Shown here: piece after piece, positions 1,878 through 55,641 of the stretch
Layout of the letters: each line of letters begins with the position of its first letter
Numbering within the stretch: position 1 is the stretch's first letter
Source of the DNA: a virus
Lineage: Duplodnaviria; Caudoviricetes
DNA: 55,641 bases
IMG/VR virus record: IMGVR_UViG_3300020478_000010
Location: 1-55,641 of that record
Reading direction: 5' to 3' (one strand)
Made by a program: the position numbers and the translations under genes
The notes under the pieces: model-generated
Database searches by the model: none
The model's input: only the letters and a program-made list of their open reading frames with translations
Told to the model about the DNA's origin: nothing

Positions 1878-1953
1878 GTCCCGTTCGTCTAGTGGTCTAG
1901 GACATCACCCTTTCAAGGTGACAACGTAGGTTCGAATCCTGCACGGGATACCA
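1878..1953 (+). tRNA. tRNA-Glu (anticodon TTC)
   Basis: 76-nt cloverleaf: acceptor GTCCCGT/ACGGGAT, anticodon arm TCACC-CTTTCAA-GGTGA, T-loop TTCGAAT, encoded CCA. Confidence 0.95.
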
Positions 1954-50370: not shown

Positions 50371-50816
50371 CCTATTGCACTAGCCCCTATTAAACAGGCT
50401 ATACCAATAATGGTGTAATCTCGTATCTGTCTACTTTTTTCTTGTCTAGCATATACGGCTTCCCTTCTAGCTTTTCGTATACGCCCTTCTTCCCGTATCA
50501 GGTCGTCCCATGCCTGAACGCCATAATGTGCAATTAGAAAATTTTTTAATTCTTCTCTTTGTTTAGCAAGTTTCTTTTTACTAGCAAAACTTTCTATTGC
50601 AACTTGTTCAATCGAACCATTAAACAGCTTATCTAAAGTTGATGGATTGTTAGAAGTCCTGTGTATATTATCAACATCACTAACTGCTGACATCCAACGA
50701 CCCAGTTCACCTGACAAATCTTCAATCTCTTTGCCTAAATATATGGCTTTTTTTATGCCGTTATAAGCAGCTGTTGCCCCACTGACAGCAGCTGACAAAG
50801 TTATTGGGTCTAACAT
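50337..50816 (-). CDS. Coiled-coil protein with C-terminal TM segment
   Basis: MLDPITL start; C-terminal hydrophobic helix. Confidence 0.65.
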   Translation of the reverse strand: MLDPITLSAAVSGATAAYNGIKKAIYLGKEIEDLSGELGRWMSAVSDVDNIHRTSNNPSTLDKLFNGSIEQVAIESFASKKKLAKQREELKNFLIAHYGVQAWDDLIREEGRIRKARREAVYARQEKSRQIRDYTIIGIACLIGASAIGWMIWIISLSI

Positions 50817-50823
50817 ATTTTTA

Positions 50824-51006
50824 TTATTTATCTCTAGGTAAACAAACTGCAACTATTTTATGTTTTGTCTTGCCGTCGTTGCTAGGGACAAGAGGCTGGT
50901 TATTTATCCTTTCTGCAAAATATTTACAATCGTTAACATTTGCAAATGCTTGAGTGTTGTTTTGAATTACTGTGCCAATGTAAACATATAGCACAAATTC
51001 AATCAT
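50824..51006 (-). CDS. Small hypothetical protein
   Basis: 60 aa, C...AVCLP pattern. Confidence 0.55.
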   Translation of the reverse strand: MIEFVLYVYIGTVIQNNTQAFANVNDCKYFAERINNQPLVPSNDGKTKHKIVAVCLPRDK

Positions 51007-51179
51007 GACGAACGCCAGCCACCACCCATTGCTTTATATCGTTTTGCAGCAAAAGCATTTGCGTAAGCCGAAGGATATACCTTAAACTTACGCTTTGCTT
51101 CAGCTTTTGCTTTTGACCATAAAGCTGGCTTAGTAGGTTTTGGCTTAGACGAAGATTTTTTCTTCTTCTTTGCTGCCAT
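51003..51179 (-). CDS. Small basic protein (58 aa, below track cutoff)
   Basis: MAAKKKKKSSSKPKPTKPALWSKAKAEAKRKFKVYPSAYANAFAAKRYKAMGGGWRSS; coupled on both sides. Confidence 0.75.
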   Translation of the reverse strand: MAAKKKKKSSSKPKPTKPALWSKAKAEAKRKFKVYPSAYANAFAAKRYKAMGGGWRSS

Positions 51180-51367
51180 TACACTTTAACCAATTTATAG
51201 CCTTTAGCTTTAGCCATTGACCTAATCTGTGCCAATGTCATTGCTTTTTTAGAACCGCCTCTAGCCATTCCTTTTGACTTCATTCCGCCTCTAGCATAGC
51301 CTTTGGATTTCATTTTTGCTCCACCTCTTGCCATACCTTTAGCTTTTTTCTTACCATGCATTGCCAT
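51179..51367 (-). CDS. Small basic protein with three KG(M/Y)ARGG repeats
   Basis: ATG at 51367 after AGGAG SD; 62 aa. Confidence 0.75.
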   Translation of the reverse strand: MAMHGKKKAKGMARGGAKMKSKGYARGGMKSKGMARGGSKKAMTLAQIRSMAKAKGYKLVKV

Positions 51368-51368
51368 A

Positions 51369-52034
51369 TTATTTCTCCTTAGCATATAAATTGTTAAATA
51401 CTCTAGCAGTGTCCTCAACATAGTTGGGGTCTTGCTTTGAGTGATGAGTCCATTGACTCGGTACAAAATCAGGTGGACCTTCACCTGTTACAAACCATGC
51501 AGGATTTGTCACCCTTACACGATTATTCGGTAACGCTACTATGTTACCTGTCCATTTTCCTGCATCCATTAATTCTAACACATGACTCTGTTTGTGTTGT
51601 GCAGGGTCATCAGCTACTTCAGTATCCGTATAGTCAATAGTAAAATAATACTTTGCCGGATAAAACTGGTTATCTATTTTTGCCTGCCAAGGACAAGGCG
51701 TTGCTCTATTCAATACAAAAACCGAATGATGGTGCGATTGGCAATCCCAAGGCTGAGCCAAATATGTAGGCAAAGGTTCTGCCCATTCATCATATGGTGT
51801 ATCTCCTACAAGGGCAGTTAGTGGCATTCTCGCCCACATAGCACCCCCGTGTACATTCTCTTCTTCATCGCAACCTGTAAACAATATCTGAAAACTTAAT
51901 GTTTTCATTGGTAAGGTTGTTACTGCTACAGCCATACCATGTAAAAACTCGCCATGGTATCGCTGAAAATTGGTCGTATATTCTCTACGAACCCATACCT
52001 TAAAATAAGGTATGTTACTTGTTATATAGTTCAT
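51369..52034 (-). CDS. Conserved marine phage protein
   Basis: 221 aa; GGAMWARMP, QPWDC, HKQSH, ALPNNR. Confidence 0.7.
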   Translation of the reverse strand: MNYITSNIPYFKVWVRREYTTNFQRYHGEFLHGMAVAVTTLPMKTLSFQILFTGCDEEENVHGGAMWARMPLTALVGDTPYDEWAEPLPTYLAQPWDCQSHHHSVFVLNRATPCPWQAKIDNQFYPAKYYFTIDYTDTEVADDPAQHKQSHVLELMDAGKWTGNIVALPNNRVRVTNPAWFVTGEGPPDFVPSQWTHHSKQDPNYVEDTARVFNNLYAKEK

Positions 52035-52331
52035 TTATTTCTTCTTACGTTTAGTTATCCGTTTTTGTTGTTCAATAAATGCTCTATAAATGCGAGCTGC
52101 ACCAGTTTTGCCAGCAACTCTCGCTCTTTGTTCCATTGCAATAGCAGCCTGCGTTTTATGAGCATGGCTCCTATTTGACCTTTTAATTTTAGCTACTGAT
52201 GCTTTAGCGTCAGCGGCTGTAGTAAATTTTAATCCCCTAATTGTACCTTTAGGGTTTTCATCAGTATATAGGTCGCTATGTTTCTTTGACCTTGCGGGCT
52301 GCCCCTTTTTCCTTGGTATTCGACGAGCCAC
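52035..52331 (-). CDS. Small basic protein
   Basis: LYTDENPKGTI...MEQRA; K/R-rich. Confidence 0.7.
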   Translation of the reverse strand: MARRIPRKKGQPARSKKHSDLYTDENPKGTIRGLKFTTAADAKASVAKIKRSNRSHAHKTQAAIAMEQRARVAGKTGAARIYRAFIEQQKRITKRKKK

Positions 52332-52684
52332 TATTTATTTCTTTGGGCTGCCATAGATTTTTCAATAGCTTTCTGTCTAACTTTTTCATAGCCTGACATT
52401 TTGCCATCTTTATTTAAATCACCTAATTGTCCTCCTTTTTTTAATCTAGGCACATTAGTCTTTAATTCCATAACATGTGGTGTTTTCTTTTTTGCAACTT
52501 TTTTCTTTTTCTTTTTAGGTAAAGTTGTTTTACCACGTTTGTTTTTCAAATCTCTATCTGATTGTGCACTTAACAAATATTCATCTAAACTCATATAATC
52601 ATCTCTTCCTAGATTAAAATAGTTTTCTCGTTTCATTTGTTCAACGTCAACAACCTCTGGTTTAATATCGCTATCTTCAGCCAT
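52331..52684 (-). CDS. Small protein with KKGG and EF-hand-like loop
   Basis: RLKKGG followed by DLNKDGKMSGYE. Confidence 0.6.
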   Translation of the reverse strand: MAEDSDIKPEVVDVEQMKRENYFNLGRDDYMSLDEYLLSAQSDRDLKNKRGKTTLPKKKKKKVAKKKTPHVMELKTNVPRLKKGGQLGDLNKDGKMSGYEKVRQKAIEKSMAAQRNK

Positions 52685-53135
52685 GTAATGGTACTCCCTT
52701 CATTCTATGAATTAGTCTATCTGCTCTATTGGTTACTTGTTTGTACCATCTAGAATCCTGCATTTGATTTCCGGCTTCAATCCACTCGCCATCTCTAACA
52801 GCCTGTATCATTTTTTTAAATTTGGAAAATCTTGGATAACCGAGATTGAACATCATATTTGCCATGATTAATCTTACTTGCTCAGGCATAGCCTCCCAGT
52901 CATCAAATATCTTTTTACAATCCGTTATAGTCGTTCGTATATCCTGCTCAAAACATTCAAGCACCCGTTCTTTGCTAACGGCTGTTCCAATAGGTTTGTT
53001 ATACTCCGGGTCAGTGCCTTTGACCAAGTGCCCGATACCAAAAGTGGGTAAACCAAGATGGTCCAAATACGTTTCATATTTACATCCCTCATCAATCTCA
53101 AGTTCTTTTTGCAGTCGTTCAACAAAATATTCCAT
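52677..53135 (-). CDS. Endolysin, T4-lysozyme-like (GH24)
   Basis: DEG...YLDHLGLPTFGIGHL; MMFNLG; DSRWYKQV.NRA. Confidence 0.9.
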   Translation of the reverse strand: MEYFVERLQKELEIDEGCKYETYLDHLGLPTFGIGHLVKGTDPEYNKPIGTAVSKERVLECFEQDIRTTITDCKKIFDDWEAMPEQVRLIMANMMFNLGYPRFSKFKKMIQAVRDGEWIEAGNQMQDSRWYKQVTNRADRLIHRMKGVPLHG

Positions 53136-53149
53136 TATTTAAATAATCC

Positions 53150-53392
53150 TCACTTTTTATTATGTAATTGAAATAAAGATTCTATTTTTTTCTCTGTTTC
53201 CTTTACAGCACTTTCAGTTCTTACAGAACTTACAAAGTTGTTTTGTATTTTTTCATTTGCACTTTTACAGTCTTCTTCTAACTTATCTACATCTTTTCTT
53301 AACGTGGTTACTTCAGTGTGTAATTTAACAGCTACAACTAAAGCCCCTAAGAAAAAAACTAATTGTTCCCAATACTGTAGTATCCCTTCCAT
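53150..53392 (-). CDS. Membrane-anchored coiled-coil protein (spanin/holin-associated?)
   Basis: N-terminal TM plus coiled coil, next to the endolysin. Confidence 0.55.
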   Translation of the reverse strand: MEGILQYWEQLVFFLGALVVAVKLHTEVTTLRKDVDKLEEDCKSANEKIQNNFVSSVRTESAVKETEKKIESLFQLHNKK

Positions 53393-53399
53393 ATAATCA

Positions 53400-53570
53400 T
53401 CAATGTATCTTTTCTTTTTTAATTTTTTTAATAAGCTTATAATAAGCTTCTGTTATGTGTTTTAAATCGTCTTTTAATAGTAGTATCATCTGTTGTGCAG
53501 CTAAAAGTTCTCTACGTAAGGCTTCCTCAAAAGTATCTTCGTGATTATCCCATCCGTTACCTTTAAGCAT
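53400..53570 (-). CDS. Small hypothetical protein (56 aa, below track cutoff)
   Basis: MLKGNGWDNHEDTFEEALRRELL...; TAATG-coupled to the upstream gene. Confidence 0.55.
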   Translation of the reverse strand: MLKGNGWDNHEDTFEEALRRELLAAQQMILLLKDDLKHITEAYYKLIKKIKKEKIH

Positions 53571-53860
53571 TATTTCTTTCCACTCAAGGCACTAAAACCA
53601 AAATAAGCCCCTAATAGTCCACACATTGAAAGATACTGGGTCATTAAAATGCTTTCTGCCTCTGCCATTCTGGTAGGGTCGTAAATTGTAGCAACAGTAG
53701 TGAAAAGCATCATAGCCAATAAAATCCAAGCCATCCTCCGTTTGTTTGTTTGATAAGTCAACTTATCAGGTACTAAGTCAGTGCTGGACTTATCTGTATT
53801 TATATACTGCAAATCATTATTGCAAGTACACTTTTTATTTTCGCCACACTTGCAGGTCAT
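53570..53860 (-). CDS. Holin-like membrane protein (2 TM)
   Basis: RRMAW + TM, TM ending GAYFGFS. Confidence 0.6.
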   Translation of the reverse strand: MTCKCGENKKCTCNNDLQYINTDKSSTDLVPDKLTYQTNKRRMAWILLAMMLFTTVATIYDPTRMAEAESILMTQYLSMCGLLGAYFGFSALSGKK

Positions 53861-54240
53861 TATTTCTTTTTAAACTTATCTAAGCCACGAATACCCAATG
53901 CTGCTGAAACAGTTAAAAATAATAAATAGGTATACCACTCAGGTAACTCATTTAGTCTTGCAAAACCATTTTTTACAACATCTTCCATTCCCGGAATAAA
54001 AACTAACACAGTCGGTATTAGAATAACAATAGTAACCAGCTCGTCTTTCCACGAGTTCTGTGTACCCTGCGCCATAATAATTTCCCATTTTGAATCATGG
54101 GTTGCGGCAGTTCTCATTATCTCTGCTTCTGCAGCAGCTTTTGTTTGTGCTAAAGTAGCTTTAGCTTTCTGCTTTTCTATCTGTCCTTGCATAAATGAAC
54201 CAGCGAGTTCGCTTATTGGTCCTATCAAAGCTTGAAACAT
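53860..54240 (-). CDS. Holin-like protein (GTA/3TM holin-like)
   Basis: SWKDELVTIV...LPEWY...ALGIRG. Confidence 0.65.
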   Translation of the reverse strand: MFQALIGPISELAGSFMQGQIEKQKAKATLAQTKAAAEAEIMRTAATHDSKWEIIMAQGTQNSWKDELVTIVILIPTVLVFIPGMEDVVKNGFARLNELPEWYTYLLFLTVSAALGIRGLDKFKKK

Positions 54241-54449
54241 TACGTATTCTCTCCTGTAGGGCTACCTATATATACACAAGTACTATATCCATTTAAGTAT
54301 TGAGGGTCTTGCGTTATTTTATTTCTTGCATGCTCTATATAGGTGTAGCATTTCTCTGATGATGAAAAGGGAAAATTAACCATTGGAAAATTTACCCATG
54401 TCGCACTTTCACCAAGTGCCCATAATATTGTTATAACTGGTATCCACAT
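54240..54449 (-). CDS. Small hypothetical protein
   Basis: 69 aa, hydrophobic N-terminus, two Cys. Confidence 0.55.
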   Translation of the reverse strand: MWIPVITILWALGESATWVNFPMVNFPFSSSEKCYTYIEHARNKITQDPQYLNGYSTCVYIGSPTGENT

Positions 54450-54734
54450 TTAACACTTCCATCTTCTCCTAGCCTGTCTTAAACGACTGTTAGGATTTTT
54501 TGCGGCTTTTGGAAACTTTTTCATCTGTCCTGCACTTCTTGCACAAAACGATTTACGTCTCTTTGCTGCTTTGCTTCCTTTTTTAACTTTACCAGTTACT
54601 GCTGTCTTTAATTTACTACCCGGGTTCTCTCGTCTATATCTTTCTACGCCAGCTTTAGTCATGCCAGCACCAGATTTAGTAGAACGAAAGTATTTTTTTG
54701 TTTTTGGGGGCTGTTTATCTCTTTTTCGTGCCAT
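54450..54734 (-). CDS. Small basic protein
   Basis: GAGMTKAG...NPGSKL...RRKSFCARS...ARRRWKC. Confidence 0.75.
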   Translation of the reverse strand: MARKRDKQPPKTKKYFRSTKSGAGMTKAGVERYRRENPGSKLKTAVTGKVKKGSKAAKRRKSFCARSAGQMKKFPKAAKNPNSRLRQARRRWKC

Positions 54735-54861
54735 ATTATCTCATTATATTAATTAAGGACGGAATCCATTGGTATAACTCCGTCCTTTGTACGTTAGATT
54801 GGCTGTAGCGAACCCCTCAAGTATAAGTACAGCTTCTTTACGCTTGTGGTAGGGCAGGTTT

Positions 54862-55065
54862 TCACCTGACATACTCAGACAATCCCTCTGCTACCAATGC
54901 TTTTTCAATGTCCTCAACGCTGAAGTCCTGTCCAGTACGTTCTCTTAAAGCCGCACGTATATAATATACATGATGGCTTGGTATATGCGTTGTAAAACGT
55001 CCCTTTTCTTCGTATTCGGCACTAATTTGCTCTAATAATGAGTTAAATTGACGTTTTTTTCTCAT
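54862..55065 (-). CDS. Small hypothetical protein (first gene of the - arm)
   Basis: HIPSHHVYYIRAALRERTG; ATG at 55065 lies 10 nt after a TG-T-TATAAT extended -10 (55083-55075). Confidence 0.6.
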   Translation of the reverse strand: MRKKRQFNSLLEQISAEYEEKGRFTTHIPSHHVYYIRAALRERTGQDFSVEDIEKALVAEGLSEYVR

Positions 55066-55143
55066 GGTATACATATTATAACACAAAAATAGAGATTTAG
55101 GAAGGGATAAGTTGTCAAGAAAAATTTATTTTTATTTAGGGGG

Positions 55144-55172
55144 TTGACAAGAGTCAAAAAATACGGTAAAAA
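55144..55172 (+). promoter_or_regulatory. Sigma70-type promoter for the ArfA-like ORF
   Basis: TTGACA-N17-TAAAAA. Confidence 0.55.
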
Positions 55173-55219
55173 GTGCTTGTTTTTCTTTTTTCCCTTTTTT
55201 TCTTTTTCAGGAACAACTA

Positions 55220-55387
55220 ATGGTAAGTAGCCGAACTCGTAAAAGAAACCCTGTTGCGGCATCCGTACGCAAATTCAGACCTAAAATAATACCCAACAAG
55301 AAAAAAGTAGTGCCCCGAAAGGCTAAACACAAGCTGGTTTACAATGCCAGCTTTTTTTATGCCCAATATCCTAGCTACTGTAAGTAG
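55220..55387 (+). CDS. ArfA-like small basic protein (55 aa, below track cutoff)
   Basis: MVSSRTRKRNPVAASVRKFRPKIIPNKKKVVPRKAKHK...; AGGA SD; resembles the ArfA core N-A...FR..V..NKK....RKGKH. Confidence 0.55.
   Translation: MVSSRTRKRNPVAASVRKFRPKIIPNKKKVVPRKAKHKLVYNASFFYAQYPSYCK
55331..55358 (+). terminator. Intrinsic terminator inside the ArfA-like ORF
   Basis: AAGCTGGT-loop-GCCAGCTT with T7 run at 55352-55358, upstream of the TAG at 55385. Confidence 0.65.
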
Positions 55388-55497
55388 CCGCACTCTGGTT
55401 TACAAACCCATACCCCAAAATTATGCAGGAGTCAAGCACATATAACGTGTAGGGGTGGGGTGGGTCATGCGTATGCCTATGCTAAAATATGTAATAA

Positions 55498-55510
55498 AAT
55501 CAATGACTTA
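55498..55510 (+). promoter_or_regulatory. IHF-consensus site
   Basis: AATCAA-TGAC-TTA matches WATCAANNNNTTR, with AT-rich 5' flank. Confidence 0.45.
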
Positions 55511-55641
55511 AGTTATTCCGTCGGAGAAAACTAAGTACTTGTTTTTGTTGTGTTTTTTGGTGTCAATTTTTTGACGCACTGGCTCTTTTTATTGTCAGTT
55601 TATTGACTATTTGAAATATAGGCAGGTAGTACAAATTTGTG

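Follow-up and report, generated by a model that had tools for sequence, protein, structure and literature searches.

We analysed a viral genome from the IMG/VR collection of 55,641 bp (linear class, 100% complete according to CheckV), hereafter called the window, and focus on a small gene at its right end. The window represents a whole marine podovirus of the HMO-2011 type. Its portal protein shares 63.6% identity with the portal of Puniceispirillum phage HMO-2011, the Roseobacter CRP phages being the next best matches. It encodes an SU10-type portal, a terminase, a ribonucleotide reductase (RNR) and a family A DNA polymerase that has a DnaJ-type zinc motif, and its G+C content is 33-39% along the genome. 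The hosts of the cultured relatives are marine alphaproteobacteria. The portal, polymerase, RNR, terminase and G+C traits together fit the HMO-2011-type group as it is set out in the available text of Qin et al. 2022, where subgroup X has 34.4-39.0% G+C and RNR is frequent (PMC9038755). The + strand encodes the replication genes (1-17.4 kb), and the - strand those for structure and lysis (17.4-55.1 kb). The small gene sits in the divergent control region beside the first - strand gene, which encodes 74 aa, and is the first gene of the rightward (early) transcription unit. The features of the locus, with groups A and E being two of the layouts described below for related phages, are as follows:

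54862..55086, - strand: divergently transcribed 74-aa gene (ORF list), the anchor for related loci (61)
55144..55172, + strand: sigma-70-like promoter read from the sequence, with -35 TTGACA at 55144-55149, a 17-nt spacer and -10 TAAAAA at 55167-55172
55176..55208, + strand: pyrimidine-rich 5' leader, kept in groups A and E
55209..55212, + strand: Shine-Dalgarno sequence AGGA, 7 nt ahead of the ATG, read from the sequence
55220..55387, + strand: ORF of 55 codons (ORF list), with ATG at 55220 and TAG at 55385-55387 as the first in-frame stop
55247..55327, + strand: conserved 27-codon core, residues 10-36 (N10 to K36), NP..NKKK..PRK.K (alignment of relatives)
55331..55358, + strand: in-frame intrinsic terminator, with stem 55331-55338 / 55346-55353 and T-run 55352-55358 (scan and fold)
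55359..55387, + strand: unconstrained tail and incidental stop, the tail varying among group A relatives
55380..55475, + strand: conserved element 3' of the terminator; two pieces of the gene repeat its first 31 nt (comparison of relatives)

An earlier note on this DNA had described a promoter at 55144, a Shine-Dalgarno sequence and a 55-aa ORF at 55220..55387, all of which we find in the sequence and the ORF list. A consensus promoter scan omits this promoter because its -10 lacks the final T; in relatives the -35 at the same place is invariant and the promoter reads TTGACA-17-TATAAA. Group E relatives carry AAGGAG 6 nt ahead of a TTG, ATG or GTG start. The terminator scan and folding likewise bear out the claim that a hairpin and T-run (55331-55358) follow KAKHK and precede the stop codon. 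The hairpin (55331-55353) has 8 pairs, 4 of them G-C, and a loop of 7, and is followed by TTTTTAT; folded alone it reaches -11.4 kcal/mol, a value matched by 0 of 200 shuffles, and the region 54000-55641 holds four terminator-like sites, where shuffles lead one to expect 1.1. Codon 38 (AAG), which encodes the last K of KAKHK, is where the hairpin starts, and hairpin and T-run lie 27 bp ahead of the stop. The whole promoter-to-terminator unit spans ~180 nt, and no gene has been called at this site.

Downstream of the hairpin the ORF encodes the tail LVYNASFFYAQYPSYCK, whose hydrophobic and aromatic character the earlier note had pointed out. Among group A relatives the tails differ (AQYPSYCK, VKNITFCK, VKNFTPYK, or A followed by a stop in one relative that ends early), and the TAG of the window ORF falls within a conserved DNA element, GTAAGTAGCCGC; because the tail is unconserved and its stop belongs to this element, the last ~9 codons look untranslated or irrelevant. 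A transcript that ends in the T-run would break off near codon 46, making it a non-stop mRNA. Groups A to E all have the conserved element, which is ~100 nt long (GTAAGTAGCCGC..CTGGTTTACAA ... GGGTCATGCGT). Copies of its first 31 nt lie, in two pieces and in a different frame, at 55223-55238 (the first codons) and 55334-55349 (the hairpin). As many related contigs end 100-250 nt past it, the element may lie near a genome end. The CTGGTWTA / GTAAGTAGCCG repeats, which occur only here in the genome, were considered as a phage-polymerase promoter, a sigma-54 site or a tRNA-like arm, and these candidates were dropped.

Is this short frame a real, translated gene? Direct searches with the 55-aa product returned four viral contigs only, whose 95-97% identity leaves too little divergence for a useful comparison. 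Neither a DNA search with 54700-55641 nor tblastn of the ORF gave a match among 50,697 phage records, nothing was found for the ORF in PHROGs and NCBIfam or by a single-ORF word-index protein search, and the family profile described below retrieved nothing from the PDB sequences. A pattern scan of 185,579 species genomes for the family yielded 430 pattern matches, none of them confirmed, and six-frame translations of HMO-2011 (50500-55282) and MW202701.1 (42000-45500) gave no match to the family HMM. The sole match of an exhaustive representative search, a 687-aa protein (E 2.4e-5, 25% identity, 4 stretches), was set aside as presumably low-complexity.

Related loci were gathered by using the neighbouring 74-aa protein as an anchor, which gave 61 viral loci at 61-96% identity, and by tblastn the small peptide is present in 50 of the 61. 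Five of the 11 loci without a tblastn match have less than 300 nt upstream of the anchor and six have room without having the gene; the family HMM found nothing in six-frame translations of these 11. The six with room are L046, L053, L054, L055, L058 and L034, of which L046, L053, L055 and L058 cluster on the neighbour-gene tree and L054 has their match profile.

The 27-codon core is free of indels, measuring 81 nt in all 54 locus records in which it was found; some contigs are counted more than once among these records, another record is cut, and 38 distinct DNA sequences are represented. Across these 38 sequences the column entropy at codon positions 1/2/3 is 20.4 / 20.5 / 31.1, and conserved residues such as PRK are written with several synonymous codon sets. 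The fold of the whole transcript is not significant (z = 0.46), and Rfam gave chance-level matches only (E > 4). The excess of change at third positions, the indel-free core and the Shine-Dalgarno sequence, along with a lack of unusual RNA structure and of Rfam matches, indicate that the ORF is a conserved, translated and very basic small gene, not a small RNA.

We sorted the 50 loci by contig into six layouts; 47 contigs are assessable, with the window counted apart:

Group A, window plus 8 contigs, one cut: the hairpin starts at the last core codon, and the stop comes 11-32 nt after the hairpin
Group B, 7 contigs: a different hairpin (CCCAGCGCTGCTGGG + T7) in frame, with the stop after it
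Group C, 1 contig: a third hairpin, in frame
Group D, 2 contigs: TAG at the foot of the hairpin
Group E, 26 contigs, two cut: ~11 more codons, a stop, and the terminator 12-23 nt later
Group F, 6 contigs: the stop one codon past the core, and the next hairpin ~50 nt on

The earlier note had proposed that the in-frame terminator be sought in homologues, and had named homologues that stop before the hairpin as evidence against its reading. Both kinds exist: besides the window, the terminator lies in frame before the stop in 15 of the 47 assessable contigs (A 7, B 7, C 1), and the stop precedes the terminator in the other 32 (D 2, E 24, F 6). Groups A, B and C have three different hairpin sequences. 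On the neighbour-gene tree group A is nested within stop-first group E, and B, C, D and F make up the other main clade (98/93 support); given where A stands relative to B and C, the stop-less layout arose, or was lost, at least two times. The non-stop layout is recurrent in the phage family, not universal, and because 32 of the 47 contigs have an ordinary stop, the protein works without it. Some relatives from protein databases, known as proteins only, have tails ...GFFYA, ...RFFYA and ...AAGFFCA, which look like further read-throughs of a T-run.

To which proteins is the small basic protein related? The Pfam family DUF7230 (PF23876) matches the window ORF weakly (E 0.038, 14.6 bits, below the 27-bit cut-off), a six-frame search with the same profile gives 13.6 bits, under the cut-off as well, and only 2 of 22 phage family members match DUF7230 at E up to 10. 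In an Atlas neighbour cluster, DUF7230 is found on 30% of the members. The families can also be compared as alignments. From 602 sampled genomes we obtained 11 bacterial DUF7230 genes (2 from 401 genomes of a phylum sample and 10 from 201 genomes of one order, one genome being common to both), and hhalign aligned the phage family with these 11 proteins at a probability of 76% and E 2.2e-5. The score of 29.4 compares with a maximum of 11.0 in column shuffles and was reached by 0 of 148 (148 valid of 150; two were dropped for artefactual scores near 130 on alignments of 2-9 columns).

A profile search of 5.8 billion sequences with the family alignment found 18 proteins. In this search a bridging protein of 40 aa, P0015, scores E 6.5e-5 with the family profile, and it matches a bacterial DUF7230 protein by BLASTP at E 5e-9, with 55% identity over 29 residues; when its locus was sought in viral and metagenome scans, only members of groups E and F came back. 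DUF7230 and the phage proteins have in common an N-terminal [KR].NPVA[KR], a basic C-terminal half ending in KHK and, in many members, an in-frame hairpin or terminator past the KHK, whereas DUF7230 reads DRKKA.K.GY where the phage proteins have NKKK.IPRK. By these profile and motif comparisons, the small protein is a divergent relative, or phage branch, of the DUF7230 superfamily. In three further proteins, P0016, P0017 and P0019, an NKKKVIPRK.K end is fused to longer N-terminal parts, and one of the three has a zinc-ribbon-like CxxC...CxxxC.

The gene layout recurs on the bacterial side. By inspection, KHK(G) is directly followed by a strong stem-loop or terminator within the ORF in 8 of the 11 bacterial DUF7230 genes, the loci with such an arfA-like in-ORF hairpin or terminator being L186, L190, L191, L193, L194, L196, L197 and L198, and several of the bacterial proteins end in ..QAA or in a hydrophobic tail. 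Locus L186 shows the same anatomy as the window, with ...IKHKG, an in-frame hairpin + T6 and then 30 hydrophobic codons. In a fixed 90-nt window past the conserved part, a fold z<-2 was found at 5/11 DUF7230 loci, as compared to 29/30 ArfA loci, our positive control, and 2/41 control windows taken 500 nt upstream. Within one order, ArfA occurs in 9/201 genomes and DUF7230 in 10/201 with 0 shared, which shows nothing since the expected overlap is only ~0.5.

ArfA (YhdL, PF03889) is an RF2-dependent alternative ribosome-rescue factor of gamma- and betaproteobacteria. The earlier note had called the ORF ArfA-like, and at the level of profiles this does not hold: PF03889 (cut-off 25.5 bits) gave no match at E up to 10 to the window ORF, to the 22 family members or to P0015, and no match in a six-frame search of the window. 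We compared the family with 30 diverse ArfA sequences gathered from 301 genomes of the phylum by a Pfam-based search, which superseded an earlier genome scan for ArfA relatives that gave only Enterobacteriaceae. The window ORF scores 2.2 bits with an HMM built from these 30. Of the ArfA sequences 30/30 have the KGKGSY motif, and none of the 38 family sequences does, which confirms the earlier caveat that the KGKGS element is missing. By hhalign the phage family meets ArfA at E 0.04 and a probability of 1.3%, with 1 of 148 column shuffles as good; for DUF7230 against ArfA the profile comparison gives E 0.43 and the pairwise likeness is weak (E 1e-3). Membership of the ArfA family is ruled out by the missing PF03889 match, the missing KGKGS and the non-significant profile comparison.

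What stands of the claim is a likeness in layout, together with the kinship to DUF7230 and a faint likeness in sequence. In the register that the note had pointed out, N.[VI]..L..F...NKK...RK.KH, the family HMM scores E. coli ArfA (NC_000913) at 11.1 bits, which 0 of 5000 shuffled ArfA sequences reach and which counts for little alone because the likeness had already been seen before the test. P0015 compares with ArfA at E 2e-4. The KHK of the window ORF lies at residues 36-38; family-wide, the residue after the K is H, Y, R, Q, D or N. According to the available text of PMC8012679, arfA and brfA are expressed from non-stop mRNAs and have a KH motif in common, and ArfA cut to 40 residues is inactive (PMC8012679). 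Like ArfA, the window gene encodes a small basic protein in a frame that runs into a hairpin or terminator, which would give an mRNA without a stop, and its read-through tail is hydrophobic; its KHK may correspond to the KH motif that closes the active part of ArfA. In contrast to the ~38-residue phage core, ArfA has ~47 ordered residues; the window gene is moreover phage-borne, and most of its phage relatives have a normal stop.

Two other rescue factors can be likened to the window gene from their descriptions in the available texts. BrfA (YqkK) of Bacillus subtilis has a rho-independent terminator before the stop, a non-stop mRNA, a level kept low by tmRNA and a KH motif, but its active form has ~62 residues and is confined to Bacillus (PMC8012679). 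ArfT of Francisella tularensis, with ~40 residues, is about as long as the phage core, is basic and helical, and recruits release factors, but in its case those texts describe no non-stop mRNA (PMC8012679, PMC6514570).

Four metatranscriptome runs yielded contigs over parts of the region. A contig of run X15 covers 55100-55297, and one of run X16 bridges the terminator (55208-55416), representing either read-through or contaminating DNA; the X16 contig gives a hint that some read-through exists, and only a hint because transcript ends are not visible in contigs and RNA libraries may contain DNA. We also predicted a complex of residues 1-40, supplied as the family alignment, with RF2_CAUVC from Caulobacter as a stand-in for the host. 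The prediction scores 0.50 against 0.00 for the best of 3 controls, in a range (<=0.60) where, by the calibration, passes are wrong more often than not unless the pairing was already likely. In the calibration the mark was reached by 58/80 solved complexes and 2/110 mismatches, with 7/80 and both mismatches at <=0.60. Partner pLDDT is >=52 and the runs share >=88% of contacts. The prediction lends weak support to a pairing of the small peptide with RF2, and the pass may only reflect likeness, because ArfA-RF2 complexes have already been solved.

What could such a protein do in an infected cell? A rescue role for the phage small protein is plausible, and our preferred reading, which we hold tentatively and somewhat short of an even chance, is a ribosome-directed, ArfA-like small protein that is gated by tmRNA in this lineage. 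Points against it are the stop-first layout of most relatives, the variable residue after the K of KH, the lack of PF03889 and KGKGSY matches, the inactivity of ArfA cut to 40 residues, the X16 contig that crosses the terminator, and the failure of the pattern scan to find the family in species genomes. The functional core would comprise ~38-40 highly basic residues (RNPVA ... NKKK.VPRK.KHK). With no stop ahead of the gene's own terminator, the mRNA would be non-stop and the ribosome would run to its 3' end; unless trans-translation is saturated, tmRNA would then tag the ~46-residue product for degradation, given the termination efficiency and the tagging that we infer. The basic C-terminal part would occupy the empty mRNA channel, presupposing that the protein binds the ribosome, and the N-terminal part might engage RF2, so that peptides would be released from ribosomes stalled on broken mRNAs during infection. 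The stop-first relatives would make the factor constitutively. A broader version, which we consider rather unlikely, is that marine phages have here their own release-factor-recruiting rescue peptide and that the DUF7230 superfamily adds one more lineage, so far undescribed, to the rescue factors made from non-stop mRNAs; the peptide would free ribosomes on degraded host mRNAs and, in lineages without the stop, accumulate only when host tmRNA is saturated.

The layout admits other readings. The gene could encode a small basic early protein with another job, such as nucleic acid binding or action on a host-takeover target, its in-frame terminator being an accident of a compact, rearranged region and the protein being made by read-through, or tagging being irrelevant; we see this as possible, if clearly below an even chance. 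The ordinary stops of most relatives agree with it, as does the RNA-library contig that spans the terminator. Group A moreover resembles a deletion or rearrangement of group E in which the leader is fused directly to the ORF, with first codons that are a copy of the post-terminator element, and in some distant relatives the sequence is joined to different N-terminal regions, of which one resembles a zinc ribbon. An accident is harder to reconcile with a layout that is found in at least two lineages with different hairpins and also in bacterial DUF7230 genes, and neutrality is unlikely because a stop-less gene under a working terminator would lose most of its product to tmRNA.

The ORF could also act as a translation-coupled attenuator of the pyrL type, in which a ribosome on the leader ORF melts the terminator and sets read-through into the downstream early genes. 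It does overlap the sole terminator between the early promoter and the downstream region, and in group E the same leader region contains a further terminator as well as a hairpin by which the Shine-Dalgarno sequence is sequestered. Leader peptides are, however, seldom conserved, yet 27 codons are kept here across deep divergence; the downstream genes differ between relatives, and groups E and F stop 12 to 60 nt ahead of the terminator, so that a ribosome could not cover it. Attenuation is for these reasons improbable in our view. Least probable by far, and close to refuted, is a non-coding small RNA or a chance ORF: a short promoter-terminator unit of ~180 nt with no called gene invites this reading, as did the absence of close homologues from the first protein searches, but the codon-position pattern, the indel-free core and the Shine-Dalgarno sequence indicate translation, the fold (z 0.46) is not significant and no Rfam match rises above chance.

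As regards precedent for the rescue reading, the stop-less-mRNA rescue factors named in the available text of PMC8012679 are bacterial ArfA and BrfA only (PMC8012679), and the available text of Burroughs and Aravind's review of ArfT does not contain the term 'phage' at all (PMC6514570). In the literature searched we found no paper on a phage-encoded rescue factor of this kind and no paper on DUF7230. If the rescue reading is true, abundant ocean phages would manage their host's pool of stalled ribosomes, and DUF7230 would gain a testable function. The natural variants amount to a ready-made experiment, with stop-less genes, genes with a stop at the foot of the hairpin and genes with a stop directly past the core.

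Some minor features of the region and its relatives are recorded here. In group E contigs (L051, 2330-2470, - strand; L185, 2650-2880) the same promoter and leader lead into an extra terminator and a ~130 nt spacer, and 3' of this spacer a hairpin pairs with the AAGGAG of the small gene. In the window, a 94-aa basic protein with a DUF6321 domain (E 8e-13) is encoded at 54450-54734 (- strand); this domain forms the C-terminal end of several much larger PHROG families. A lone tRNA-Glu (UUC) gene lies amid the early genes at 1878-1953 (+ strand).
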